A DNA stretch of 64,000 bases, taken from positions 3,247 to 67,246 of IMG/VR virus record IMGVR_UViG_3300009101_000006. The stretch is one strand, 5' to 3'. Origin of the DNA: a virus. Its lineage: Duplodnaviria > Caudoviricetes. The translations under genes and the position numbers were made by a program. Of this stretch, positions 236-56,066 are shown piece by piece (position 1 is the stretch's first letter; each line of letters opens with the position of its first letter). The notes beneath the pieces are model-generated. The model did no database searches and was not told where the DNA came from. It was given only the letters and a program-made list of their open reading frames with translations.

Positions 236-604
236 TCATTGGTAATTCACCGTGATGTCATTGGTGCCGCTCTTCACGACGGTCAGTCCAGTGTTGAACG
301 TCGCGTCGTACACGTAGCACCCCGTTGGGGACGACGTGGTGAGCGCGAGCGTGGCGATCTTGGTGCCGGAAGCTGCCGTGTTGTCGTAGATTGTGACGGT
401 GTCCGAGCCCGACGGATTGTTGACGCACACGCTGTGAAGAACACCCTGAGAGCTCTTGAGCACGGATGTCGCAGCCGTGGTCAGGTTGCGATACGCGTTG
501 CCGCCAAGAACTCGCAGCGGAGTAACTGCCGCGAGCGAGAGCGACGCGAATCCGAACAGAAGACCAATCCCCAGGACTGTCGAGACGGGAAAGCGGCGGA
601 ACAC
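236..604 (-). CDS. Small signal-peptide protein in head module (decoration-like, beta-rich, 2 Cys)
   Basis: GTG at 604 with GGAG upstream; MFRRFPVSTVLGIGLLFGFASLSLAA then Thr/Ser-rich beta sequence; C-terminal part of track ORF 236..1039. Confidence 0.7.
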   Translation of the reverse strand: MFRRFPVSTVLGIGLLFGFASLSLAAVTPLRVLGGNAYRNLTTAATSVLKSSQGVLHSVCVNNPSGSDTVTIYDNTAASGTKIATLALTTSSPTGCYVYDATFNTGLTVVKSGTNDITVNYQ

Positions 605-606
605 GA

Positions 607-1215
607 CTACTGCTCCGTCCACTCGAACGTGGCGCTGAGCGAGGCGGCCGCAGTGCTCAGCGCGTTCGGGAAGTTCAGGCACGCCGACTGCGCCACGCCA
701 CGCAGAGTCAACTGCTGATTCAGCTGATTCTGAGGATTGAACGCGCGCTCGTAGACCGTGGTCGCGGTCGTGGTCGCCAGGAGATTGATCACGTCCGACC
801 CGATGGTGACGCCCGTTCCAGGAGTCGGAACCACCGTGTAGGCGTTCATGACGGCAGTCGCGCCGCCATTGTTCAGCGTGCTGTCGAACGAGCCGATCGA
901 CGGCTGAGTCGAGGTGCCCCCGGAATTCGCGGTCGTGCGCTTGACCAGATTCATCACTGCCGACTGCGCCGTGGCGTCGGTGCCCGACAGACGAATCTTG
1001 GTGATGCGGATGGTCTTGGTCGCCGATCCGACCAGACACGCAGCGTCACCAGCTCCGGTCTGCGGGAAGGTGAAGGTGGCACCCGCCGAGAACGTCGGAC
1101 GCTGAAGAACCGGCGAGCCGTACGACGGAGTCTGCGCGAGGGCGGGGGGCACGACGCTCGCCGAGACCAGGGCGGTCGTGACCAGCGCGATCAGAGCGGT
1201 CTTGTGAAGCTTCAT
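607..1215 (-). CDS. Signal-peptide protein in head module (202 aa, beta-rich, 2 Cys)
   Basis: MKLHKTALIALVTTALVSASVVPPALA|Q resembles a Sec signal; tight spacing with neighbours. Confidence 0.8.
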   Translation of the reverse strand: MKLHKTALIALVTTALVSASVVPPALAQTPSYGSPVLQRPTFSAGATFTFPQTGAGDAACLVGSATKTIRITKIRLSGTDATAQSAVMNLVKRTTANSGGTSTQPSIGSFDSTLNNGGATAVMNAYTVVPTPGTGVTIGSDVINLLATTTATTVYERAFNPQNQLNQQLTLRGVAQSACLNFPNALSTAAASLSATFEWTEQ

Positions 1216-3038: not shown

Positions 3039-3434
3039 CTAACCCTCCGGTCCCGGCATGAAGCAGCGGATCCAGACGAATCCCCTGTGGTCACGGACCG
3101 GCCACACGTACGCGCGTCCGGCTAGATTCGGCGGAGGAACCACCGTGTCCGGCGGAACGTCCATCCATTTCCCGTCGACACGAACTGCGTAGTGGTCGCC
3201 GATCGTTTTCCAGTCTGGATCTTCGAGAGCCTGTCCGTCCGCATCCGAACAGCACGGCGACTTGGACTTGGACTGGAGCGATTCGAACCAACCGTGCAGC
3301 GGGGAGCCCGCGTATCTGCCGTCCACGTCGCGGGCTCGCGCCATCGTTGCGATCGCGGCGAGCAGAGCGCAGATCAGGAGAACTGTCCCGAGCGACTGCA
3401 TCGCACGAAGCAGACATCTGTCAAATCGTCTCAC
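3039..3434 (-). CDS. Secreted-type hypothetical protein (CCSDAD...RCF)
   Basis: Hydrophobic N-terminus ending ARA; resembles hypothetical proteins I associate with Bradyrhizobium-group bacteria (from memory, unverified). Confidence 0.7.
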   Translation of the reverse strand: MRRFDRCLLRAMQSLGTVLLICALLAAIATMARARDVDGRYAGSPLHGWFESLQSKSKSPCCSDADGQALEDPDWKTIGDHYAVRVDGKWMDVPPDTVVPPPNLAGRAYVWPVRDHRGFVWIRCFMPGPEG

Positions 3435-38360: not shown

Positions 38361-38815
38361 GCTCCCTCCATCGCGGGCTTCAAGAATCTCCATTCCGGCG
38401 GCTCTCGCTCCCTGGTCTTCGCGCACCACAGATACCAGACGAGAATCCACAATAGACTCTTGATTGCGCTCATCCAGTCCAGGAAGACCAGTTCTCCGAG
38501 CATCTCGCCAAAATCGTATCCTATCAGTAGTGTTCTGAGAAAGCGCAGGTCTTCTCGGTTGCGCTCCGCAGATTTGTTGTGCGCGAAGGGGAACCGGATC
38601 TGTTGGTCGTGATACACGACACACACGATCGTGACCACGGCGAACAGGAACAATCTTATCGGATAAATCGTCGCTCGGTTAAAGACCAGTTCTGCGATTA
38701 TTATGATCACGAACTCCAGGAGACCGACGGTCACTCCGGTCCAGTCCCAGATTCGCAGATAGATCTCCTGAACCGCGTCGATCACGCGGCGATCCGCAGA
38801 CACTATCCAGCTCAT
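38357..38815 (-). CDS. Multi-pass membrane protein
   Basis: Several hydrophobic segments; coupled to primase. Confidence 0.65.
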   Translation of the reverse strand: MSWIVSADRRVIDAVQEIYLRIWDWTGVTVGLLEFVIIIIAELVFNRATIYPIRLFLFAVVTIVCVVYHDQQIRFPFAHNKSAERNREDLRFLRTLLIGYDFGEMLGELVFLDWMSAIKSLLWILVWYLWCAKTREREPPEWRFLKPAMEGA

Positions 38816-40404
38816 AGATCTTCTCCCTTCATGCGCGGCGTGGCCGCCTCCTGGGTCCGTGATACCGCGGAGCTCGGAATCCACCAAAGACTCCGGTAGC
38901 CGATCCCCTTGATGTTGATGCCGTGGTGCGCACCACCCATCTTCCGTATCAGGCTCGTGATGCGCCCGCGATGTTTCGCGAGATCCTTCATGCCGTCCCG
39001 ATCGAGAATCTTCTGGAGCGACGACAGCTTGAAGTAGTGTCGCCCGTTCTCCTCGTCCTCCCACGGACGCCCCTGAGCCAGATCCTCGATCACGCGCCCG
39101 CGCTGCCGGTTCGTCAGGAACGTCTCGAGAAGCTCCGTGAACTGACTTCCCGGCGCCAGATCGTCCGGCGTCTCGAGGATCTCGAGATTCTGCATCACGT
39201 CGTTGAGCACGCCGAACCACACGTTCTGCGATATGATAGCGAACGACTTGTGAACATACTCCATGCACAGACGATGGAATCTGTGATAGTTCTGAAGATC
39301 CTCCGTGGACATCGGTATCTTGGCGCCCTCGACGTCGACAAACCACAGCGGCGGCTCGCTGTTCAACTTCGATATGTGCTGGATCTGCGGATACGTGCCG
39401 CCCGCCCCCACGCCGAACTTGCGCGATCGGCACTGCATCGCGTCGCAGTGGCTCTGCATCGGCTGGTCCTTGCACTTGTACTGGTAGTCCTTCCGTTCCA
39501 GGGACTTGATCGTGACCGCCAGCTTGTCGATCGGATACGGCGGATCGCAGTGATCGTGCGCCGACTTCTCCAATCGCTGCGCCCAGTCGTCCGGAAACTT
39601 GCGCTTGTAGTACACGCCGAGATGAAACAGAAAGTTGTTCTGCCCGCCCTGCTTCACGCCCCCCGACATCACTAGATGTTGGATGCAAGGAGGTCCATCG
39701 GTAAACGGGGGCTTCTCCTTCCGGGGCTTCCGGGATCCGTTGCTGTTCTCGCTGCGAAAGGTTGCGAAGTCTTCGGGACGAACGCGCATGCGCTCGGCCT
39801 CGTGCAGGAATTCGGACAGGGTCATCTCGGCGCCCGTGCGCTTGAGCCCGGCCTGCATCCGCAGCTTGTCGCCGTAGGTCGTGCCGCAGTACGGCATGAC
39901 TATCCAGCTCGGCTTCTCTCCGCGATCTGCGAGCAGCTTGGTCTGCTTCGGAAAGATTTCGGAGTTCGCGTATCCTATGCTCGCCATCATCTCCCGAAGC
40001 GTGGACTGCATGAGCGCGGCCTCGACGGGCTCCGTCGAGAACAAGAACAGATGCAACCCGCCGGACTTGCTGCGGCACGGAAGCAGCGGATATTTCCGCT
40101 CGGTCACGCGTCGTATGATCTCGTCGTGATCCGCGTCGTAGTCGTCGATGTCTCCACTTCCCCAGACGCATCTGTTGTCGTTGCGAATAGGTGCCACGCC
40201 GAGCGGCAGCGTGTTCATCTCGGACAGGTGTCTCGTCCAGAGCGCGGGTGTAGCCGCTCCGCTCAGAGTCTTGGCCGTCGAGCGTATCTCCCATTTCACG
40301 CCACCCTGGGGATCGAGCGTCGGCTCTCCGTGCGTTCCGTGATACTGCTCGTTTCCCGCGAACAGTTCTGACATCCTCTCCGCGTCTGATTTCTTGGCAG
40401 GCAT
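38812..40404 (-). CDS. Archaeo-eukaryotic-type primase (TOTE-like AEP) with PriCT-like domain
   Basis: GSGDIDDY, RSKSGGLHLFLF, EIFPKQ, GPPC...NNFLFHLGVY. Confidence 0.8.
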   Translation of the reverse strand: MPAKKSDAERMSELFAGNEQYHGTHGEPTLDPQGGVKWEIRSTAKTLSGAATPALWTRHLSEMNTLPLGVAPIRNDNRCVWGSGDIDDYDADHDEIIRRVTERKYPLLPCRSKSGGLHLFLFSTEPVEAALMQSTLREMMASIGYANSEIFPKQTKLLADRGEKPSWIVMPYCGTTYGDKLRMQAGLKRTGAEMTLSEFLHEAERMRVRPEDFATFRSENSNGSRKPRKEKPPFTDGPPCIQHLVMSGGVKQGGQNNFLFHLGVYYKRKFPDDWAQRLEKSAHDHCDPPYPIDKLAVTIKSLERKDYQYKCKDQPMQSHCDAMQCRSRKFGVGAGGTYPQIQHISKLNSEPPLWFVDVEGAKIPMSTEDLQNYHRFHRLCMEYVHKSFAIISQNVWFGVLNDVMQNLEILETPDDLAPGSQFTELLETFLTNRQRGRVIEDLAQGRPWEDEENGRHYFKLSSLQKILDRDGMKDLAKHRGRITSLIRKMGGAHHGINIKGIGYRSLWWIPSSAVSRTQEAATPRMKGEDL

Positions 40405-44940: not shown

Positions 44941-45417
44941 TCATTTGTCGTCGCGACTGAGCCGCGTGGCAATCTTGTCGATCTTCGCGTCGATCTTGTC
45001 GATCTTCACGTCGATCTTGTCCGAATTCTTGTCGAATGCCCTCTCGATTCTATCGACCACGGCCTGGAAACTGGCTTTCGAGACGAACGAATCCCGAGAA
45101 AAGACCTCGAACTCGTGGATCTTTGATCGCAGGGCATGCCCCTGTTCTCCGACTTCTCGCCGGATCGTGTTAGACTGATCCAAGACTAGGACCTCCAGCT
45201 TGGTGACATCACGCTGAATATTCTCGAACTCCGCATCTATTTGTTCAAACTTTTCGTCCGAGTGAAGGAATTTATCGTCGATCTTTTTCTCGAGAGTGGC
45301 TTTGATATCGCGTTCTCGATTAGCAATCCAAAGAATAACGCCAGTTACCGCGGCTACTACCGTGGCGATCGTTCCAACATTCGCGAGAACGTTGAATTGG
45401 TCGGGTGTGAGTGCCAC
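44941..45417 (-). CDS. N-terminal TM + coiled-coil lysis-module protein (holin- or i-spanin-like)
   Basis: GTIATVVAAVTGVILWI TM followed by heptad-rich tail; last gene of the late operon. Confidence 0.55.
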   Translation of the reverse strand: MALTPDQFNVLANVGTIATVVAAVTGVILWIANRERDIKATLEKKIDDKFLHSDEKFEQIDAEFENIQRDVTKLEVLVLDQSNTIRREVGEQGHALRSKIHEFEVFSRDSFVSKASFQAVVDRIERAFDKNSDKIDVKIDKIDAKIDKIATRLSRDDK

Positions 45418-45491: not shown

Positions 45492-45869
45492 CTATCGAGT
45501 GAAGTGCCCAGTGATGGTCACGGGGCCGTTCGGAGTCATGGCGACCCCGACGCTCACGTCGACACCGAGCTGAACCGAACGAAGACGCGAGGCCGGCTTC
45601 ACCACGGGCGCGGCCGCGATCGCAGCACAGATGCCCTGAGCGATGGTGGCCGCGTCCGCGACAGCGCCGCCTGCTCCCGGGATGAACGCCGCAATGGTCG
45701 CGATAGTCGGAATGAAGCCGCACGCCAGATTGGCGTCGGCCTGGACCTGAGCCTGGATGCTCGAGATCTGGTTCTGGACGTCGACGGTCGAGCACGCCGC
45801 GAGCGAGGCGCCAGCCGTCGCCACTGCGGCGATAGTCGCGATGAGACGGGACTTGTGACTGATTCTCAC
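45492..45869 (-). CDS. Lipoprotein (spanin-like candidate)
   Basis: IATIAAVATAGASLAA|C lipobox; in lysis module. Confidence 0.7.
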   Translation of the reverse strand: MRISHKSRLIATIAAVATAGASLAACSTVDVQNQISSIQAQVQADANLACGFIPTIATIAAFIPGAGGAVADAATIAQGICAAIAAAPVVKPASRLRSVQLGVDVSVGVAMTPNGPVTITGHFTR

Positions 45870-46087
45870 TTCTGTTCTCCCTTGGTGGGTGCCGGGACCG
45901 GAGGTGGTACCGGGGATGGAGCCGGAGCCGGTGTCGGCTTCGGCGACGCTGCCACGACGGCGTTTGCGACCGCCGCAGCAATTGGTGTGATCTTGTCGTT
46001 CGAGACCCAGCCGCCGTATCCGGTCTCGTCAATTCCCTGACGGATAACACGAAAGGCGGCTTGGATCTGTTGCTGAGTTGCGCTCAT
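45866..46087 (-). CDS. Small protein with Pro-rich tail
   Basis: Coupled ORF in lysis module. Confidence 0.6.
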   Translation of the reverse strand: MSATQQQIQAAFRVIRQGIDETGYGGWVSNDKITPIAAAVANAVVAASPKPTPAPAPSPVPPPVPAPTKGEQK

Positions 46088-46836
46088 GCCAGCTCCTTGA
46101 GGAAGTTTCCGAGAGCCTCCGCGTCGAAGCCCTCCGGCGACAGATTATTCGCGTTCACATATTCCGGCGAGAAATACGCGACCGTCTCGTCGTTGTACAA
46201 CTGGTAGAACTCCCTCGACATCGCGTGGACGCGACCCCACGTGACGAGGATCGCCATGCCGCGCGAATTGCGACCGACGATCGGGATGTAGTGCCCGCCG
46301 CTGACGTGCGACGAGGGAACGGGCGTCCACGGCTGGTGCGAGTCGAACTGCGACTCGGCGCTGTCCGGGAAATTGATGCCGACGCCGACGGCTCCGAAGA
46401 GCCACGTCGCGAGCATGAGCTGGTCGAAGTCGCCGGGTGTCAGGGACATGTACGCAAGAATCTGGTGCCGAACGCCGTGCGCGTCCACTACTCCAGTCTT
46501 CCGGCGATACGAGGCCGCCTCCTGCATGTCTGTTCCCTGATCAGTGTCAGGCGTGCCGCGATACCCGGTAACGGCCGAATAATCCGAGATCACGCTGGCA
46601 TCAGTGAATGGAACAGAGCCTCGCCGCGAGGCGAGGTTCCACAGCTTGTGCTCGTGCGCCGCGCCCGCCCAGACGCAGTCCCCGACCTTGTCGTTCGAGA
46701 ACATGCCCCAAGACGATACTGTCTGGTAGTGACCAAACACGGGCGGAGGCTTCGGCAACTTTGACGCACGAAAGATGGACGAGAACTTGAGCCGAATAGA
46801 GTCCTCTCGTGCGGGAAGTTTGCCGAGCGCCTTCAC
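46084..46836 (-). CDS. Papain-like (clan CA) cysteine peptidase; candidate endolysin
   Basis: NDKVGDCVWAG (Cys), GGHYIPIVG (His), VTWG. Confidence 0.7.
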   Translation of the reverse strand: MKALGKLPAREDSIRLKFSSIFRASKLPKPPPVFGHYQTVSSWGMFSNDKVGDCVWAGAAHEHKLWNLASRRGSVPFTDASVISDYSAVTGYRGTPDTDQGTDMQEAASYRRKTGVVDAHGVRHQILAYMSLTPGDFDQLMLATWLFGAVGVGINFPDSAESQFDSHQPWTPVPSSHVSGGHYIPIVGRNSRGMAILVTWGRVHAMSREFYQLYNDETVAYFSPEYVNANNLSPEGFDAEALGNFLKELA

Positions 46837-47351
46837 TTCGCGACTCCGCCCGAGGCGACCGGGGTCACGACCGGATCGGTCGGCGTATTCGGGTCCGCGA
46901 TCGCCGTGGCAATGCGCGCCCGGATGGCCTCGACAGCCTCGCCGCTCTGAGGATCAAGGCCGAGCGCCGTGATCACGCCAGCACCGTGCTTCTGGGCATA
47001 GGAGATCGCATCGCGAACGACCTGACTCCGAACGTCGATCGAGAGGTTCGGATTGTTCCGAAGCTGAGTCTGCGCGCGCATCGCAGCGTCGTTGATGCCG
47101 TTCACGATGATGCCCTGAAGCTGGTTCTTCTGCGCGTCGGTGATCGATACGCCGAGCCACTTGAGCCCGCGCACGATGCCCCAGAGCACTGCGCTACCGA
47201 TGCTCGCGCCGAACGCCGCAGTGACGTAGCCAACGACGGTTGACGCAGCGCCGCCACCGTTGAACTGATCCGCAGCGAGAACCGAACACGTGGTCACTGC
47301 CGTCGAAGCCGCGAAGGCAGTCGCAAAAGTGAACAGAATTCTGTAGTTCAT
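46833..47351 (-). CDS. Holin-like membrane protein (LL-H-like)
   Basis: Hydrophobic N-terminal segments followed by helical soluble region; upstream of the peptidase. Confidence 0.55.
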   Translation of the reverse strand: MNYRILFTFATAFAASTAVTTCSVLAADQFNGGGAASTVVGYVTAAFGASIGSAVLWGIVRGLKWLGVSITDAQKNQLQGIIVNGINDAAMRAQTQLRNNPNLSIDVRSQVVRDAISYAQKHGAGVITALGLDPQSGEAVEAIRARIATAIADPNTPTDPVVTPVASGGVAK

Positions 47352-47425: not shown

Positions 47426-47635
47426 CTAGTCGCGGTAAGAACACTTGGCGCGAACCAGAGGCGACATCTTGAGCCCCTGCCAGTTCGTGGTCATATGTTT
47501 CTCGATGAAATCGTTCATCGCGGCAGTGCACGCCTCCGGGGTGTCGAATCGCTGGGAAGGCTGCGACGGAGCCGAGGGATGAAGCGGCGTGATCATGAGA
47601 ACCCAGGCGAGTAGAGGAGCAGTGAGAAGAAGCAT
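47426..47635 (-). CDS. Small hydrophobic-N-terminus protein (2 Cys)
   Basis: MLLLTAPLLAWVLMI...FDTPEAC...CSY. Confidence 0.5.
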   Translation of the reverse strand: MLLLTAPLLAWVLMITPLHPSAPSQPSQRFDTPEACTAAMNDFIEKHMTTNWQGLKMSPLVRAKCSYRD

Positions 47636-47659: not shown

Positions 47660-50431
47660 TCAGCAGCTCGTCGTCGACACGAACCCGAACTGCGCCGTGC
47701 CCGTGAGCGCCGTGGCCGCGGCTGGAATGCCGCCAGGAGGCGTCAGGCCATTGAGACGAAGCACCGACCCACAGAACGACAACGAGACATTGACCGTTCC
47801 GGTACCGGGGCCGTTCGTTGGATTGGCGGAATAGTCGATCACGCTGCCGCCTCTCGCAACCAGGAACGCGCTGATGCTCACGTTGCCGCTGTACGACCAC
47901 GTTCCACCGGTCGTCACACCGGAGCAGTGATAGTCGCACCAGACGAATGACAGAAACGTGCTGGTGCCGCCGTTGCCTAGGATGATGCCAGCACCAGTTC
48001 CAGAGATCGTTGCTCGCCCCTCGCCGTCGGCGAAGAATACGTTATCGTTCGTGCCGCCGGATCGAAAGTTGTGCGCACCAACGACGTCTACCACCGCGAT
48101 CTGGTGCTCGTAGAACGCACCAGTATTCAGAACATTGTTGGTGTTGCACGTCCACGTCTGCGTGAAGCCGAAGGTCGCGACGAATCGCGCCTCTGCGTTG
48201 TCGCTGACGACAGCGCACGCCGCCCCCGCCCCCGTCGAAACGGCAGTGTTGGTCCAAGTGTTGGCCGCGCGCGTGTTGTAGTTGATGAAGTTGTATCCAG
48301 TGATCTGACCCTGCATCTGGACGTTCTCGTTGAACGGTCCGGTGTAGAGCCCGATGTTCGGCGCGATGTTGTTCGCGTCCCATTCCTGGTAGACAACATT
48401 CGTCGCGTACTGAATGTTCTTGAAGCAGCGCGTTCCGACGCCGAGACCATCGTTGCTGTTGCTCCCGGACGCGTCAACGCAGACCTCGGTCTGTCCCGGC
48501 TGTTTCCAGCGCTGACCCTGATATGCGAAGGCCCACGAATTGTTGTTTCTGAAGACCATCTGCGACTGACCGGGCCAGAGACGGACCTCCGGAGCGATCT
48601 GCCAGTCCGTGAACGTTCCGGAACCACCGATAGTGTCTACGGTGATCGTCAGAGTCGTGGTCACGTACGACGCGACTACCCCGGACATGAAGTTCGAGGG
48701 GTTGGCAAGAGAGAAGACCCGGTAGCGCTGCGTGGAGCCAAATTCTGGAACCAGAATCGGAAGACCCGACGACGTGGTGAACGCCTTGGATCCAGTTCCA
48801 ATCGTGATCGATGTCGAGGACGTGGCAATCTGCGGGACCAGCAGCTTGCCGAACGAGGTGTCCTCGTTGATGACCATGAAACAGGTCGTGGCACCGTATC
48901 CGCTCGCCGCGTTGAACGTCAGCGGAAAGAACGCAGATCCGCCGAGCGCGAACGTAGAACCGGAATCCCCCGAAAGGACTGCGTACGCCGAGGTCTTTGC
49001 CAGACGCGTGTTTGTCCAGCAGCCGCCCGAAGATGACGCTATGGTCGCGAATACACCGCCAGCACAACTAATCGTGATGTTGTCGCACTTCGCGAGACCA
49101 AAGACCGAAGACGACGCGTTGGGGATGCTGGCCGTCGAGACAGCGGTGACAAGACCCTTGGCATTGACCGTGATCTGTGGAACGGTCGTGGCCGCGCCGA
49201 ACGTTCCAACGTTGCTGTTGACCGTGGCGAGAGTAGTCGTGATGGCGGTGGCGCCGCTCCCGGACACGTCACCACTAAGAGTGATCGTCTGATTCCCGGT
49301 GATGACGGCCGTCCCACCGACGTACAGTCCAGTGGCGTTGAGTGTGCCGACTCCCTTGTCGCCACCCGAGACGGTCGGAGGAATTGTCACGCCACCGTCG
49401 TTCTCGAAGCTGACCACGTCCGTCAGAGTCGTAGAACCGTTCGGCGTGGTCGCGATTCTTACGTACGAGCCGTTGGCCGTGGGAGTCCAGTTCTGGGCAG
49501 CGAATATGCGAACCGAGGCGGAGGGGCTCGTCGCGTACGCGCTGCTGTTGTATCCATGCGCATTGAACCCGCAGATCTGGTCATTCGTCAGGAGAGCAGA
49601 TGGAACTGCGAGAGTTCCGTCGGCTCGAACGCACGAGAAGAACCCGGTATTCCCGAACGAATCCAACTGAGCGCGCGCGACTGCGCCATCCAGTGCTACG
49701 CCGCGAAACAGCGCGCCGGACTGTGCCGCGGCCGGCGTGCTGGCCCCCGCGTACGACATGAGGACACCAGAAAAGGTCAGTGCGGTCGCGTCGAGCAGCG
49801 GCACGGTGTGGCCGCTGGTGCCCGTACTGACCGAGCCCCACGAGCCCCCGGTTCGGTACGGGAGCATCCCGTTGGAGGATCCGATGGCCTGATCCGCGAA
49901 GGATGTCCACGCGCAACCGGTCGGTTCCGCAGAGCCCCCCGTGCAGTTGGCGAGAAGCCTCGCGGACGCGATCGGGTTGAGCGCCAGAGCTCCGGCGCTA
50001 ACCGTGAAGTTGCTGTCGTAACTGAGCCCGTAGGTGGCGACGCCACCGCTGAATCCCAGAGTAACGGGAGCAGTCGCCGCGAAACTGCCAGAGGTCGCGA
50101 CGACCGAGAATACTCCCGTGTTGATGTTCAGCGTACCCCACTGAATCCACGACGAGGTGGACGGATTCCAGAACTTGAACTTGTAGTTCGGCGAGGACGA
50201 CGTATCCACCCAGTCCTGCATCGAGGTCTGGTTCGCCGGCGCCACACTCCCGGCAAACTTGCCAAGAATGTTGTTGATATCGTTGTAAGTCGCCAGGAAA
50301 TTGTTCCTGACAACTGCCGACGTGAGAGTAGAGTTCTGCGCGGGGACCGCAGGATTCACCGTGCTGACCGCGAAGGCCGGCACAGTGAGTGCGCAGAAAA
50401 GAGCTGCGACTATCGCGAGAATTCGCCTCAT
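47660..50431 (-). CDS. Tail fibre / receptor-binding protein (923 aa) with Sec-type signal peptide
   Basis: Gly/Ser/Thr-rich beta sequence after the baseplate genes; MRRILAIVAALFCALTVPAFA|V; 16 Cys in predicted mature chain. Confidence 0.8.
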   Translation of the reverse strand: MRRILAIVAALFCALTVPAFAVSTVNPAVPAQNSTLTSAVVRNNFLATYNDINNILGKFAGSVAPANQTSMQDWVDTSSSPNYKFKFWNPSTSSWIQWGTLNINTGVFSVVATSGSFAATAPVTLGFSGGVATYGLSYDSNFTVSAGALALNPIASARLLANCTGGSAEPTGCAWTSFADQAIGSSNGMLPYRTGGSWGSVSTGTSGHTVPLLDATALTFSGVLMSYAGASTPAAAQSGALFRGVALDGAVARAQLDSFGNTGFFSCVRADGTLAVPSALLTNDQICGFNAHGYNSSAYATSPSASVRIFAAQNWTPTANGSYVRIATTPNGSTTLTDVVSFENDGGVTIPPTVSGGDKGVGTLNATGLYVGGTAVITGNQTITLSGDVSGSGATAITTTLATVNSNVGTFGAATTVPQITVNAKGLVTAVSTASIPNASSSVFGLAKCDNITISCAGGVFATIASSSGGCWTNTRLAKTSAYAVLSGDSGSTFALGGSAFFPLTFNAASGYGATTCFMVINEDTSFGKLLVPQIATSSTSITIGTGSKAFTTSSGLPILVPEFGSTQRYRVFSLANPSNFMSGVVASYVTTTLTITVDTIGGSGTFTDWQIAPEVRLWPGQSQMVFRNNNSWAFAYQGQRWKQPGQTEVCVDASGSNSNDGLGVGTRCFKNIQYATNVVYQEWDANNIAPNIGLYTGPFNENVQMQGQITGYNFINYNTRAANTWTNTAVSTGAGAACAVVSDNAEARFVATFGFTQTWTCNTNNVLNTGAFYEHQIAVVDVVGAHNFRSGGTNDNVFFADGEGRATISGTGAGIILGNGGTSTFLSFVWCDYHCSGVTTGGTWSYSGNVSISAFLVARGGSVIDYSANPTNGPGTGTVNVSLSFCGSVLRLNGLTPPGGIPAAATALTGTAQFGFVSTTSC

Positions 50432-50455
50432 GCAGATGTCCTCAACTGTTGTGTA

Positions 50456-51466
50456 TCAGGTCTTGACGAACCGAACGACGACCGACAGCGGCGGAAGGAT
50501 AGGGTGAGAACTTCCCGACGTGTTCGTGGACGTCACGTTGATCGTGTTGTTGCCCGCAAACGTGCCCGTGCCGCCCCAACTGGAAGATGTTGATGCGGGA
50601 CAGATCGCGCTGCCGGTTCCGCAGTTCGATACCTGGATATTTCCAGGCCCAGTCGTGACAGGGACACCGAGACTGCCACCAGTTGGAACGACCGAGATCG
50701 AGTTCACCGCTGCGGAAGTGATCCCGGTCGGAAGCTGAGCAACGGTCAGCGTCTGGTTCTGAGCACCGCACAGAATACCTGTCGCCGTGGCCGCGCATCC
50801 GCTGCCACCACTGGTGATCCTTCCGGCAGATCCGTTGGCGCCCTGGTTGTCGGCAGCCGCGATCAGCGCCCCCCGGCTGTCCGGTAGTGCAAACAATCCG
50901 CCGGAGCACGCGCCGTACGACGTCCCGATGAGACTGAACAGGGCTGCGTAGGTCGTCTGGCTGACGCACGAACCGTCCTCGACGAGATAGCCGGGGGGCG
51001 CCGTGACGCCCGCGCCGGACGTTCCGGCTGAGATGCGGAGCTCGAGAATGGAGCCGATCGGGGCGGGATTGATCGGATAGACCAGATTGAGGCTGGTTCC
51101 GTCGTAGACGACCGTCGTGAGAACTCCGGACTGAATCTCTGCGCCGGAGAGGCCGACGAGGCCGAGACTCGACGGACGTCGCGTGGTCACGTTGCCGAGG
51201 CCGTTGACGTTGATCGTGGTCGGGCCAGTGTTCGTGGACGCCGGGATGAACGAGAACGGCACACCCTTGACCAGGGATGACATGTTGTAGACAGTCATCG
51301 TGATCGTGTTGGTTCCGGCGACGCTTGTCGCCAGAAGACCCTGCGATGCGAACTGCGCACGGGCTTCGCGGCCCGGAACGATCAGGTCCGGGAATATCGC
51401 AGTGGCGAGAAGCGCGAATGCGAACGACAGTACTACGACGGTTCTTTTCAGCATTTTCTTTTCCAC
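50456..51466 (-). CDS. Tail-collar-domain fibre protein with Sec-type signal peptide
   Basis: PIGSIL...PPGYLVEDGSCVSQTTYAALFSLIGTSYG...FALPDSRG collar motif; signal ...VVVLSFAFALLATAIF...EARA|Q; 6 Cys. Confidence 0.85.
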   Translation of the reverse strand: MEKKMLKRTVVVLSFAFALLATAIFPDLIVPGREARAQFASQGLLATSVAGTNTITMTVYNMSSLVKGVPFSFIPASTNTGPTTINVNGLGNVTTRRPSSLGLVGLSGAEIQSGVLTTVVYDGTSLNLVYPINPAPIGSILELRISAGTSGAGVTAPPGYLVEDGSCVSQTTYAALFSLIGTSYGACSGGLFALPDSRGALIAAADNQGANGSAGRITSGGSGCAATATGILCGAQNQTLTVAQLPTGITSAAVNSISVVPTGGSLGVPVTTGPGNIQVSNCGTGSAICPASTSSSWGGTGTFAGNNTINVTSTNTSGSSHPILPPLSVVVRFVKT

Positions 51467-52062: not shown

Positions 52063-52824
52063 CTACGTTGCTGTTCCCCATCCACCGATATCAAAACCGG
52101 AGATGGCAGAGTTCTCCACGTCGAACCCGAAGTACGGGGCGTCGGGCACAGTTGGTGTGAGATACGCGTCAATGTGCACGCCATCCGGCTTCATGTTCAG
52201 ATATCCCCCACGAAATAGCGCAGAAGTCACGGCGTTGGGGATTGGTCCCGTCAGCGCCTGGATCATGTGCATGTTCTCGAGGTCCTGGATCAGGATCCCG
52301 ATGCCGGTTCCAGAGAAGGCCGTGTTCCAGACTGAGTACGCACCGGGGATCGAGCCGTCCCACTGATTACGCGCGATTCGTGCACGTATAAGTGTTCGAT
52401 AGTCCGCGTCCGGCAGGACAACGAGACCAGAACTGGGATTGAACGGACTGTACCATGTCCCCTCGTCGAATCCGACACCCACCGTGTCCAGAGAGAAATA
52501 GACACCAACGAGTGGAACAGCAATATTTCTGGAGACACCAACCCACTGACCGATGATGTCCAGTTGATCTCCGACTGCGACGTCCACGTCGAATGCCGCA
52601 GCAAACGACGCCATGACGGACATGCTATCGGCTATCGGCTGGAGAACCGCTCCGACCATCGCCATGAAATTTGGTTGCTGGTTATATTCACTCGTGAAGA
52701 GAGACTCGTACGGAGCAATGTCGCCGTTCGCGATGCCCGAATTGATATCCCACTGCAAACCAGAATCCCAGTCTGCTCCGAATGATGGGTCGTCCCACGT
52801 AGTTACGACATACGGTGTTACCAT
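52063..52824 (-). CDS. Baseplate wedge protein (DUF2612-like)
   Basis: FDVDVAVGDQLDIIGQWVGVSR...YRTLIRARIARNQWDG. Confidence 0.85.
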   Translation of the reverse strand: MVTPYVVTTWDDPSFGADWDSGLQWDINSGIANGDIAPYESLFTSEYNQQPNFMAMVGAVLQPIADSMSVMASFAAAFDVDVAVGDQLDIIGQWVGVSRNIAVPLVGVYFSLDTVGVGFDEGTWYSPFNPSSGLVVLPDADYRTLIRARIARNQWDGSIPGAYSVWNTAFSGTGIGILIQDLENMHMIQALTGPIPNAVTSALFRGGYLNMKPDGVHIDAYLTPTVPDAPYFGFDVENSAISGFDIGGWGTAT

Positions 52825-52825
52825 G

Positions 52826-54004
52826 TCAGGAAACCACGATCGTGACGTCGGAAAGCTGCGTGAACGCGGCTGCGTTGAACGCGATGGCGATATCGGCAGT
52901 TCCGAGTGCGTTTCCCTTGATCGCCTGTTTCACCGCCGTGACAACAAATGTTGCGCCGAGGCCGACACCCCCGAGATTGGCTGGAACATACAGACGCGTG
53001 AGATACGAATCCTCTCCAATGGCCAGTGCATTGATGAACGCGACAACGGCGTCCTGAATGGCGCTCTCGGTCGTAGAGATGAATCCAGTCAAAGCGTGGA
53101 TATCAACTTCAAACACGAGCTCGATGTTCGTCAGTTCGTAGAACCCGATACTGTTGGGAACACCAGCGGGGTCTATGATCGTGATGATAGTGCTGCCGTA
53201 GGCTCGTGTTCCAGGTGTCTTCTTGATTGCAATGGCGTTCGCAATGTCTGTGGCGTCGCCACCGCTGACAACCATGGAGATGGAATGCGGAGGCAGACCA
53301 TTGCTGTCGGCGATATCGTTATCGTTCTCGTAGGGGGCAACGCGCTGAACTCCGGTGACTGCTGCGACCGAGGCGGTCACACTGTCCAGCACCGAGAGTG
53401 CCGGGATAGAAGTAGAATTGGACTGGCGCACGCGAAGCTGCGAATCGCTCTCGTTTGGTGCGCCGAGCGTCGCGCTCTGCGGGTTGGTGACACTCTGCCA
53501 GTTCTGCGTCGGCGTGAGTATGTTGACGAGAGTATTCGCCGCCGCCGAGACAGCCCCGACTGCTGTGCACGTGGCGGTGACCGTCACCGCTCCCGTGTTG
53601 TCGATGACCACGGAGGCGGGAAGAGACCACTTGGTCCCAAGATTCTGGTTGTCGCCTATCACACCGTTGAGAATCTGGGTTCCCTCAGCACCGGTCACGA
53701 CGACATTGACCGTGCTGTTGGTGCTGACATCGCGCTTGAGACCGTTGATCTTGACGACAGACGAGAGCTGAACGCCCTGAGCAGTGGCCGGGCTGAAGCC
53801 CTGATACGCGGCCTGCGCGAGCAGGCCAGCATCGTAGATGATCTGTGCGAGAACCGCCACCCACTGCCCATCGGGGCTGTTGGCGTCGAGGTCAGCATCC
53901 GAGCCGTAGATCTGCCAGAACTGAATCTTCAATTCCTGCAAGATATCGGCGTAGTCCGGAACGAGAATCCCGTTCTCGGTGAGTTGTGCTCCGATGGTTG
54001 CCAT
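52826..54004 (-). CDS. Baseplate J-like protein
   Basis: SPDGQ, ATAQGVQL, ESDSQLRVRQ, PPHSISMVVSGG. Confidence 0.9.
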   Translation of the reverse strand: MATIGAQLTENGILVPDYADILQELKIQFWQIYGSDADLDANSPDGQWVAVLAQIIYDAGLLAQAAYQGFSPATAQGVQLSSVVKINGLKRDVSTNSTVNVVVTGAEGTQILNGVIGDNQNLGTKWSLPASVVIDNTGAVTVTATCTAVGAVSAAANTLVNILTPTQNWQSVTNPQSATLGAPNESDSQLRVRQSNSTSIPALSVLDSVTASVAAVTGVQRVAPYENDNDIADSNGLPPHSISMVVSGGDATDIANAIAIKKTPGTRAYGSTIITIIDPAGVPNSIGFYELTNIELVFEVDIHALTGFISTTESAIQDAVVAFINALAIGEDSYLTRLYVPANLGGVGLGATFVVTAVKQAIKGNALGTADIAIAFNAAAFTQLSDVTIVVS

Positions 54005-54384
54005 CAGATCGTGATCTCCAATGTGACCGGCTGCGTGCTGTAGATCGTGAGAATCTGAGCCCTGACGAAGAGCTTGCGTGCCGGCACCCCGTTCTCGATG
54101 ATATTGGCGGTCAACTGACTGTTGTACGACACGATCTTCGTGACACCCTGAGTCGTAAGAATCCTGGACTGTATGGCGAGATCGTACGTCGGATTCTGTC
54201 GGATGCCAAAGATCTCCTGATACCACGGAGTCCCGTCAGTAGAATCAAGGAACCATTCTCCGAGAAACAATTTGAGCCGCTCGGAGATCTTGTTCCCGAC
54301 GGCCAGAGGCTCGTCGTGGTAGAACCCGGACAAACCGTTGCCAAACGTGTAGTCGCCGGCTGGTGTGAGTTTCCTGACGCGCAT
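54004..54384 (-). CDS. Baseplate wedge/sheath initiator (gp25/gp46-like)
   Basis: RKLTPAGDYTFG...GEWFLDSTDGTPW. Confidence 0.8.
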   Translation of the reverse strand: MRVRKLTPAGDYTFGNGLSGFYHDEPLAVGNKISERLKLFLGEWFLDSTDGTPWYQEIFGIRQNPTYDLAIQSRILTTQGVTKIVSYNSQLTANIIENGVPARKLFVRAQILTIYSTQPVTLEITI

Positions 54385-55112
54385 CAGTTGTGAGGTCCAG
54401 ATGTTGGATCGCCCGGAATTCCAGACGTGTGAACGTGAGTATTGATGTCGATTCCAACGACAGTGAGAACGCCAGAAGTCTCAAGATTGGTAGAACCGAA
54501 GTTTAGCGTGCCGCCGCCGCCGACGGCATTGGACACGACACCGTCGACCGCGAGCGCCCCCTGAATATGAACAGATGGCGCGATCAGATTGATCGTATTG
54601 GTCGCCTTCACGTTGACGACGCCGCCGTTCTTGTCGAGCTCGACGTACTCGTTGCCATCCTCGGACCAGAAACGTGCCGTGGTCGTGCTGTAGTCGTGGG
54701 GTGCGTTGCCGCTCGACACGATACCTGGGATGAACATCCCGTCGCTGAGATCGTGCATTCTGAATTCAGCCTGCGGCTGCACGCCGCCGCTCTGCCACCA
54801 CGCGTCGATGCACCGCGACGCGAAGACAATGATGCCCTCGTCTCCCTTCGCGAGCGGAAACGTCATGCCGTACCCGCCACCACGCGGGAACGACACGGGA
54901 ACGTCGAGACACTGCGGTAGAGTCGCATTCGACCAGACGCCCTTGGGGTCACGCGTCTGCGCCTGTATTGCGGGTTGCACCACTGCGGTCATCTTGGCCG
55001 CGTCGAACGACTGCAAGATACCCGGCAGCGCTGTCCACAGTGTCGCCTGAAACCCCTCGAGCAGGTTACGCAGCGACGCCAGAGGATCAGCTATTCGTTC
55101 TCGTCTATCCAA
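54384..55112 (-). CDS. Baseplate spike/puncturing protein (gp138/gpV-like)
   Basis: TALPGILQSFD...DVPVSFPRGGG...GDEG...RMHDLSDG; terminal HVH metal-binding motif. Confidence 0.85.
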   Translation of the reverse strand: MDRRERIADPLASLRNLLEGFQATLWTALPGILQSFDAAKMTAVVQPAIQAQTRDPKGVWSNATLPQCLDVPVSFPRGGGYGMTFPLAKGDEGIIVFASRCIDAWWQSGGVQPQAEFRMHDLSDGMFIPGIVSSGNAPHDYSTTTARFWSEDGNEYVELDKNGGVVNVKATNTINLIAPSVHIQGALAVDGVVSNAVGGGGTLNFGSTNLETSGVLTVVGIDINTHVHTSGIPGDPTSGPHN

Positions 55113-55115
55113 GTT

Positions 55116-56066
55116 CTACTCCTGCGCCACGCCGTATGGAAGCACCGACTTGTCCTGCGGCGAGCTCTGGTTGACCGCAAGGCAGATCAGGCTGGACGTC
55201 CACGCCGAGCCGCGAATATCACCATGGTGCTCCACGACGAGAACGCGATAGACGCCGTCGTTGCTCGTGTTCGCCACGAAACTGATATCCGTGTACCGTG
55301 GGAATCCCTGCTTGTTGATCTGGGTCTGGTTGATATCCGAATTGTTGATCTGGACCCGCGTCCCGACCTTGATGCGCGGGTTCAGGAGGCACTCAATCTC
55401 GATCCCGTTCTCTGTCGCCTCTGGCACGCCGATCATGCCGGTCGCGCTGTTGAGAATGACTATCTCGCCATTCGCGTATCCAGTCAGAGGAATGAGAACA
55501 AGCTGCCCGTCCTGGAAAGACCACGTCGAGTCCGAAGTGCTGGCGATGGGGTTCATCTGGTCCTTGCCGAGACCAAACAGAACCTTGCCGCGCGGCAGCA
55601 CGCCACCAGTTCCCGGAACCGGAGACCCGTTGCTGTCGTACTTCACGCCGTACTGCGCGAACGATTCGGCGACCGCGTTCGCACGATCCTGCTGCGTCGA
55701 GCCCGCCGCCAGAGACTTGTTCACCACGGCGAACTGAAACGCCTTGTCACCGTCGCCGGCCATGATGTCGAGAAACGAATCTTTGTTGTCGACGCGACCG
55801 CTTCGAAACTGCGAGATATCTCCGGAAAAGATCGTGCCGTAGCTCCCGCCCTCGTACCCAGCCTGGAGTCTCACGGTCTGGAATTCCTGCTTCACCTGCT
55901 TGATCGTGGACTGCGAGAGATTTATCACTCGGATCTTGCCAACGTTGGGTGTGGTCGTATCGGCCTGACTGACTTGGAAAATAATTTCGAAGTCGGACAG
56001 ATCGAGCACCTTCCCCGAGCTGCTGCTGAGGAACAGACCAACCTTCCTGATGTACTGGTCGCTCAT
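55116..56066 (-). CDS. Baseplate hub protein
   Basis: Position; LQAGY...IFSGDI...WSFQDGQL pattern. Confidence 0.8.
   Translation of the reverse strand: MSDQYIRKVGLFLSSSSGKVLDLSDFEIIFQVSQADTTTPNVGKIRVINLSQSTIKQVKQEFQTVRLQAGYEGGSYGTIFSGDISQFRSGRVDNKDSFLDIMAGDGDKAFQFAVVNKSLAAGSTQQDRANAVAESFAQYGVKYDSNGSPVPGTGGVLPRGKVLFGLGKDQMNPIASTSDSTWSFQDGQLVLIPLTGYANGEIVILNSATGMIGVPEATENGIEIECLLNPRIKVGTRVQINNSDINQTQINKQGFPRYTDISFVANTSNDGVYRVLVVEHHGDIRGSAWTSSLICLAVNQSSPQDKSVLPYGVAQE

Follow-up and report, generated by a model that had tools for sequence, protein, structure and literature searches.

Assembly of tailed phages is described as a wholly cytoplasmic process. Phage proteins that do take the Sec route are secreted or signal-anchor-release endolysins, spanins and the coat proteins pIII and pVIII of filamentous phages. 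Of these coat proteins, pIII binds the receptor and contains disulfide bonds; filamentous phages are assembled at the membrane and leave the cell unlysed. To our knowledge, none of the known Sec-route phage proteins is a tail fibre of a tailed phage. Adaptors that bear other fibres are exemplified by gp10 of T4-type phages and by TSP4 of phage CBA120 (PMC8825819). Exported proteins resembling phage fibres are known from Bdellovibrio bacteriovorus as MAT fibres; behind the signal peptide these have a conserved N-terminal domain, then a shaft of beta-helical type and a variable tip, and some of them contain disulfides (PMC10769870). Here, we analysed a stretch of 64,000 nucleotides (hereafter the window), which represents bases 3247–67246 of the 67,246-bp IMG/VR virus record IMGVR_UViG_3300009101_000006, a record rated complete. 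It belongs to a contractile-tailed phage (myophage) of ~67 kb from plant-root soil. We focus on three consecutive genes of its late tail operon, that is genes A and B, encoding the only two long tail fibres recognised in this phage, which appear to be exported, and gene C, encoding a leaderless fibre stub (Table 1).

The initial annotation of this DNA had claimed that both distal fibre genes start with classical signal peptides, and the coordinates as well as the sequences proved to be as claimed. Gene A starts with an ATG preceded by GAGG 8 nt upstream, and its product begins with MRRILAIVAALFCALTVPAFA/VSTVNP, the slash marking the predicted cleavage. Gene B has a GTG start preceded by GGAG, which gives a product of 336 aa; use of the ATG at 51454 gives 332 aa, the version that the public protein collection contains. 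To assess signal peptides, we applied our own checks of the n-, h- and c-regions and of the −3/−1 rule to 25 A-family sequences, 58 B-family sequences and 150 cluster representatives. By these rules both leaders have the make-up of Sec signals, i.e. a basic n-region, an uncharged hydrophobic core and small residues at −3 and −1. A conserved twin-arginine motif was not detected in the A family, as the RR of A is not kept in its relatives, and the leaders carry no lipobox, that is no Cys at +1, which together indicates the Sec route with signal peptidase I. It had also been considered that the true starts might lie downstream of the hydrophobic segments. However, there is no start codon with a ribosome-binding site near the cleavage site of either gene and thus no sign of a leaderless isoform.

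A survey of relatives, as the initial annotation had proposed, revealed that the leaders are widely retained. For A, 547 relatives were found, and in an alignment of 25 relatives with 24–51% identity Ala occupies −1 in all 25 sequences and A or G occupies −3 in 24. The leaders in this family measure 20–25 aa, with one to three K/R residues near the start and almost no acidic residues. Their sequences cannot be aligned, whereas the mature N-terminus (STxNP...VRNNF.A.YNDINNIL) is conserved, and the cut falls exactly one residue before the STxNP module. When a profile of the mature N-terminal module of A was searched against 1.84 billion cluster representatives (50%-identity clusters), 1085 clusters were retrieved at E<=0.001 and 401 at E<=1e-10; a leader precedes the module, which starts at residue 17–37, in about 141 of the best 150 clusters. 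For B, the alignment comprises 58 rows, i.e. B and 57 relatives, all of which possess an N-terminal leader, with Ala at −1 in 54 rows and Gln at +1 in 49. One relative (L008; loci are numbered with the prefix L throughout) has a plain 21-aa leader that ends before the same QF. Dozens of diverged relatives retain both a leader and an A-x-A site although the leader has drifted in sequence. This is far beyond what chance would produce and marks the leaders as functional features. Export of A and B through a cleavable Sec leader is thus strongly supported by these sequence comparisons.

The cysteines of both proteins point in the same direction. Sixteen of the 17 in A and all six in B reside in the mature chain, the remaining one of A being part of the leader, which confirms the even counts noted in the initial annotation. 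Among the matches of the B search, 64 of 65 leader-bearing proteins have an even number of mature cysteines, as compared to seven even and 14 odd counts in leaderless matches. In the A search, the median is 10 cysteines for leader-bearing matches (30 even, four odd, two zero) and 0 for leaderless ones. Scoring of 124 leader-bearing A-module clusters by motif pattern yielded 113 even and five odd counts, with six lacking Cys. Moreover, individual pairs come and go together: residues 267/287 of A are both present in 10 sequences, both absent in 15 and never found alone, and residues 163/173 are both present in 20, both absent in three and single in two. In B, the pair 282/289 is complete in four sequences, missing from 54 and alone in none, while the pair 224/233 occurs in all 58 rows if an alignment shift of two columns is allowed. 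Both the parity of the counts and the co-variation of pairs are extreme, and these patterns strongly support that the cysteines of A and B form disulfide pairs. The earlier proposal of export and Dsb-type disulfide bonding is thus backed by kept leaders, even cysteine counts and pairs that are gained or lost together, and we regard export with disulfide bonding as highly probable on these grounds. With their secretion signals and paired cysteines, A and B are thus very likely to attain their fold outside the cytoplasm, the compartment in which the particle itself is made.

Both proteins are almost certainly true tail fibres. Residues 152–201 of B match the tail-collar family PF07484 with 47.2 bits (gathering cut-off 24), and B also matches tail families of the PHROG collection. 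The AlphaFold2 (AF2) model of B has a mean predicted local distance difference test (pLDDT) score of 73, with values under 50 in the regions containing the pairs 224/233 and 282/289. Residues 34–160 match bead III of the tail fibre gp47 of Pseudomonas phage Pa193 (9b45_2; Z 9.5, root-mean-square deviation (rmsd) 3.8, 98 aligned residues), and residues 133–336 match the receptor-binding domain of T4 gp12 (1ocy; Z 8.9, rmsd 2.2, 73 aligned residues) as well as the fibre of cyanophage A-1(L) (8kec; Z 9.4, Foldseek E 1.7e-5). An assignment of the bead as an XD1-like domain was dropped, as it relied on weak matches alone (6o38, Z 2.7). A belongs to no Pfam or PHROG family. Its profile positions 258–351 match the Bdellovibrio fibre Bd1334 (8oml, E 2.7e-11), and a profile search relates its shaft segment to the L-shaped tail fibre pb1 of T5 (4uw8, E 8e-6); A further contains a short repeat that is common to many leaderless fibres. 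It is the collar of B, its matches to gp12, A-1(L) and Pa193 gp47 and the shaft matches of A to pb1 and Bd1334 that identify the two proteins as fibres. The C-terminal half of A resembles DUF2793 and pectin-lyase-like clusters in structure atlas entries (template modelling (TM) score 0.50–0.55) and may form a right-handed beta-helix, which we treat as a lead only. For full-length A, the AF2 model was of low quality (mean pLDDT 44.8) and was discarded for fold searches and for analysis of disulfide geometry.

Fibres of the same kinds also occur with no leader. In locus L104 (3396–6717), three tandem paralogous fibres each carry a leader and contain six, six and eight cysteines, respectively. 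They align over their full length with WAX24428, a leaderless tail fibre with a single Cys from the cultured Bradyrhizobium phage ppBeUSDA76-2 (35–43% identity, E 1e-45 to 1e-56), and in this alignment residue 4–5 of WAX24428 corresponds to residue 24–25 of the L104 fibres, that is directly after the predicted cut. The L104 fibres represent another family than A or B; WAX24428 has a weak match to B in the collar region. Likewise, leaderless fibres in L014 (two cysteines in 950 aa) and in L016/L019 (nine cysteines) begin with the N-terminal module of A, although these share only the first about 40–60 residues with A. Within each of these families, leaderless and leader-bearing fibres thus have their N-terminal modules in common; the leaderless ones, unlike A and B, have one or two cysteines, or nine in L016/L019, and no leader, which identifies them as ordinary cytoplasmic fibres. 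Because they start at the cut site, cleavage would re-create the N-terminus that ordinary fibres use at their attachment end. A leaderless relative of B in L027 carries an extra N-terminal anchor in place of the leader, and among the 80 viral collar open reading frames (ORFs) that most resemble the collar of B, 73 are leaderless, most of them with one or two cysteines.

Gene C, located directly upstream of B, differs from both fibres in that its product of 193 aa has no leader and one Cys. Residues 1–88 form a fibre N-terminal anchor (phrog_11303 tail fibre, E 9.5e-28), in strong support of the previous designation of this protein as a leaderless, baseplate-proximal adaptor. The remainder, residues about 90–193 (C_C), is an XD1-like domain of the gp10/TSP4 type, at the end of which C terminates with no distal domain. 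The profile of C_C matches residues 71–144 of a T4-like gp10 (9f4a, E 3.8e-5) and residues 108–167 of TSP4-N of CBA120, which lie in XD1 (E 0.005), both matches being modest. A profile search against solved structures detected in C no XD2 or XD3 jellyroll domain, the type that docks partner trimers in such adaptors, and NCBIfam yielded merely a sub-threshold GTA_spike_fiber match (E 0.003). Homology between C and B was considered and rejected, as hhalign of both alignments indicated no relation (probability 0.2). A hidden Markov model of C detected C_C directly upstream of a B homologue in the window and in L003, L004, L005, L008, L022/L023, L024, L025 and L026, which amounts to nine distinct loci, L022 and L023 being one and the same sequence from Bradyrhizobium. 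This adjacency persists where C_C is carried by a protein with an unrelated N-terminal part. Two loci without B (L007 and L015) also have no C_C; in L006, most of C_C is still detected although B is absent. Conservation of this two-gene module is the best in silico hint that B may dock on C.

Taken together, these data suggest a model in which a cleavable Sec signal peptide has been grafted onto true tail-fibre proteins. A and B would be made late in infection and threaded unfolded through SecYEG, and signal peptidase I would cut A one residue before STVNP and B before QF. Both proteins would then fold in the periplasm, probably as trimers, where the host Dsb system would close eight disulfides in A and three in B. 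Meanwhile, the particle built in the cytoplasm would bear just the 193-aa stub C with its baseplate anchor and XD1-like domain. Once the holin and the lysis cassette breach the envelope, particles and fibres would meet, B docking on the C-terminal domain of C and A joining via its conserved N-terminal module, which would yield a virion with oxidised and stable host-recognition fibres. Export in vivo, the trimeric state, the identity of the docking partners and when and where attachment occurs are the inferred parts of this scheme. Since T4 particles devoid of fibres can take them up in vitro, late fibre attachment is physically reasonable. Attachment to the virion is indirectly supported because leaderless fibres elsewhere share the N-terminal modules, because no other leaderless receptor-binding protein was seen among the scanned genes of the genome and because C_C is strictly linked to B. 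That the exported fibres subsequently join the virion, at lysis, is plausible and has in our view about an even chance of being correct. The complete sequence of export, oxidation and docking on the stub at lysis is the best explanation we can offer as a whole, one that might as well fail as hold. By extension, a large group of soil and rhizosphere tailed phages might build their virions in two compartments, with head, tail and fibre stub being cytoplasmic and the fibres being Sec-exported, Dsb-oxidised and attached at lysis or after release; we put this generalization forward tentatively, rating its prospects somewhat below even.

Several observations weigh against attachment of A and B to the particle. 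The case for their presence in the virion, although plausible, is comparative and indirect. The position of A-type genes varies: they follow B in the window, long C-type fibres in L006 and L007 and baseplate J in L002 and L012, while in L010 (10001–12595) and L011 the leader-bearing gene is located between the tape-measure region and the baseplate hub, with leaderless fibres downstream. In L009 the A-type gene follows a complete leaderless fibre and in L012 it lies beside one, and A-type genes also occur in loci of quite different gene content (L017–L021). Such placement looks like that of an accessory, mobile gene, and an upstream partner or docking domain shared by A-type genes was not found across 19 loci. 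As for B, the XD1 domain is, unlike XD2 and XD3, not an established docking surface (PMC8825819). Furthermore, on the chromosome of a cultured Bradyrhizobium erythrophlei (LT670849; L022 9624–10945) a B homologue with 43% identity is preceded by a 126-aa protein composed of a signal-peptide-like leader and a C_C domain. The surrounding element is small, contains few tail genes and encodes a GpP-like hub as well as a D5-type primase. Hence, the C_C–B pair can work wholly outside the cytoplasm. Finally, the hydrophobic core of B is long, which makes an uncleaved membrane anchor conceivable.

A serious rival accommodates many of these points, namely that A and B, although exported and bonded by disulfides, never become part of the particle and instead act on the cell envelope during infection or lysogeny. 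For instance, they could bind or cut the polysaccharide receptor of the phage on its way through the periplasm and thereby block superinfection, keep progeny from sticking to debris or loosen the capsule for release; they would be derived from fibres because the same receptor specificity is needed. The scattered A-type genes beside complete leaderless fibres (L009, L012, L010), the failure to find a partner domain for A, the exported C_C protein of B. erythrophlei in its tail-poor element and, as a lead only, the potential pectin-lyase-like beta-helix of A all fit such a role. The alternative raised in the initial annotation, a secreted receptor decoy or adhesin, likewise retains some probability in view of the A-type genes beside complete leaderless fibres and of the exported C_C protein. 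However, the leader-bearing fibres keep full N-terminal virion-attachment modules, cleavage re-creates the leaderless N-terminus, B occurs in strict linkage with the C-terminal domain of a protein anchored in the baseplate and all three L104 paralogues have leaders. Moreover, with no further fibre-like gene in the tail module and no candidate among the scanned genes of the genome, the 193-aa stub alone would be left for host recognition. We therefore consider a non-virion role unlikely, albeit worth serious attention. It is improbable that A and B are adhesins of lysogenic conversion, which the cell would export as fibre-like trimers onto its own surface to the advantage of the host, in the way that MAT fibres serve Bdellovibrio. 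The architecture would suit this role, since MAT fibres too have a conserved N-terminal domain right behind the signal peptide, then a beta-helical shaft and a variable tip, as well as some disulfides (PMC10769870), and the shaft segment is common to A and Bd1334. Yet the genes reside inside the late tail operon between baseplate and lysis genes, no route across the outer membrane is visible, and a single pattern scan of 185,579 species genomes, which may have missed others, retrieved one chromosomal relative of A alone, in a prophage of Paraburkholderia sp. EB58 (L002), as compared to many in viral contigs. Finally, the hydrophobic N-termini might not act as export signals in vivo, reflecting wrong starts or a helix for assembly or membrane tethering, with folding in the cytoplasm. 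The unusually long core of B could be read in this way, and localisation of both proteins is predicted from their sequences. Nevertheless, we judge this very improbable, given that the n/h/c-regions and the −3/−1 rule are kept over hundreds of diverged clusters while the sequence drifts, that even, co-varying cysteines occur in the leader-bearing forms alone and that no downstream start has a ribosome-binding site.

The genes occupy a minus-strand late operon in which sheath, tube, chaperone and tape-measure genes are followed by those for hub, spike, wedge subunits and the DUF2612 protein, and then by C, B, A, a 69-aa ORF and the presumed lysis cassette (Table 1). The lysis role of this cassette is presumed from position and sequence features. 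The 69-aa ORF occupies the usual position of fibre-assembly chaperone genes. It has no copy in the related loci examined, and its membership of the fibre system is uncertain. DNA near-identical to the window is present in several rhizosphere metagenomes; no RNA run was listed as containing it.

Table 1. Features of the late operon of the window, with genes A, B and C and their parts (window positions; a slash marks predicted cleavage).
Feature	Position	Strand	Basis
Baseplate hub	55116-56066	-	late operon
Spike	54384-55112	-	late operon
Wedge subunit	54004-54384	-	late operon
Baseplate wedge J-like protein	52826-53950	-	PF04865; phrog_6
Baseplate protein DUF2612 (gpI-like)	52063-52824	-	PF11041, E 2.3e-48
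Gene C, leaderless fibre stub, 193 aa	51469-52050	-	phrog_11303; one Cys
Gene B, putative exported short fibre with tail-collar domain, 336 aa	50456-51466	-	PF07484; tail PHROGs; AF2 model
B signal peptide, residues 1-37: K/R residues, 17-residue core, Pro-rich c-region, ...EARA/QF	51356-51466	-	kept in relatives
B bead domain, residues 38-135	51062-51355	-	pLDDT about 90; Pa193 gp47 match
B collar and receptor-binding part, residues about 136-336; Cys pairs 167/187, 224/233, 282/289	50456-51061	-	structure matches, pair co-variation
Gene A, putative exported tail-fibre or tailspike-like protein, 923 aa	47660-50431	-	ORF with ribosome-binding site
A signal peptide, residues 1-21: MRR, 14-residue uncharged core, AFA/V	50369-50431	-	kept in relatives
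A mature N-terminal module, residues 22-130 (STVNP...VRNNF.A.YNDINNIL)	50042-50368	-	profile matches
A remaining conserved N-terminal region, residues about 131-390; Cys pairs 163/173, 267/287; fibre-shaft segment	49262-50041	-	A-family alignment, pair co-variation, profile
A variable C-terminal half, residues about 436-918, Cys-rich	47678-49126	-	structure matches, lead only
69-aa ORF, hydrophobic N-terminal segment, 2 Cys	47426-47635	-	phrog_3766 weak, E 9e-4
Presumed lysis cassette: 165-aa membrane protein, 250-aa phrog_19005 protein, 73-aa protein, 125-aa lipoprotein (lipobox LAAC)	45492-47330	-	position and sequence features
Membrane-anchored coiled-coil protein, GTG start	44941-45414	-	next after presumed lysis cassette

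Some further observations were made along the way. In the head operon, a Mu-F-like gene is followed by two small proteins with Sec-like leaders and two cysteines each (236–1215, minus strand), one of 202 aa at 607–1215 and one of about 120 aa at 236–~600. Neither has a Pfam, PHROG or NCBIfam match, and they may be head-side counterparts of the exported fibres. A 131-aa protein directly after the portal gene (3039–3434, minus strand) has an N-terminal membrane segment, five cysteines and no family match. The portal protein itself (PF06381; 3437–5452, minus strand) carries a fused C-terminal InPase domain (PF18823, residues 531–650, E 3.9e-27), and a 530-aa protein (38812–40404, minus strand) has a sub-threshold match to the AEP-TOTE primase family PF22548 (26.3 bits, cut-off 27). 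In L018 (11433–17052), structural genes unlike those of the window phage are followed by three leader-bearing proteins in a row, which measure 97, 1223 and 556 aa and contain four, 20 and 16 cysteines, respectively.

If attachment outside the cytoplasm is correct, it would add a new, late step to a well-studied assembly pathway, couple fibre attachment to lysis and make host Sec, signal peptidase and Dsb unexpected requirements for phage infectivity. It would also explain how some environmental phages obtain disulfide-stabilised fibres, and recombinant production of such receptor-binding proteins would then need periplasmic or oxidising expression. If, on the other hand, A and B are not virion parts, they would make up a large class of phage proteins, so far undescribed, that derive from fibres and are exported. 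As regards annotation, the presence of a signal peptide is no ground for excluding a gene from a virion module. The comparison of the L104 fibres with Bradyrhizobium phage ppBeUSDA76-2 offers a good experimental system. In full-text literature searches we found no published description of Sec-exported fibres of tailed phages, and the candidates that did surface concern spanins, endolysins or cargo tags instead. Our analysis contributes the family-wide counts, the comparisons of leader-bearing with leaderless fibres including one of a cultured phage, the identity of the stub as XD1-like and the linkage of C_C to B.

In their general design, the fibres described here follow T4 gp12/gp10 and the tailspikes of CBA120, where a short adaptor is combined with separately encoded distal fibres. 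B shares with gp12, which is carried on gp10, a gp12-type collar and receptor-binding fold (PF07484; 1ocy, Z 8.9), and C likewise combines an anchor with a domain matching the XD1 region of gp10 and TSP4 (PMC8825819). The systems differ in that no XD2 or XD3 docking domain was detected in C, and in that gp12 and TSP1-4 are leaderless and assembled in the cytoplasm, whereas the distal parts here carry Sec leaders and paired cysteines. In carrying Sec leaders, A and B resemble the Sec-route endolysins, spanins and pIII/pVIII, which likewise are encoded by phages, depend on Sec and function or are assembled outside the cytoplasm. Among published systems, the MAT fibre family of Bdellovibrio is the nearest analogue (PMC10769870). 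A has the same layout, proceeding from signal peptide to conserved N-terminal domain, shaft (8oml match, E 2.7e-11) and variable tip. However, MAT fibres are encoded on the chromosome of the predator and serve its own surface, whereas A and B are encoded in a phage tail operon, beside a baseplate-anchored stub.

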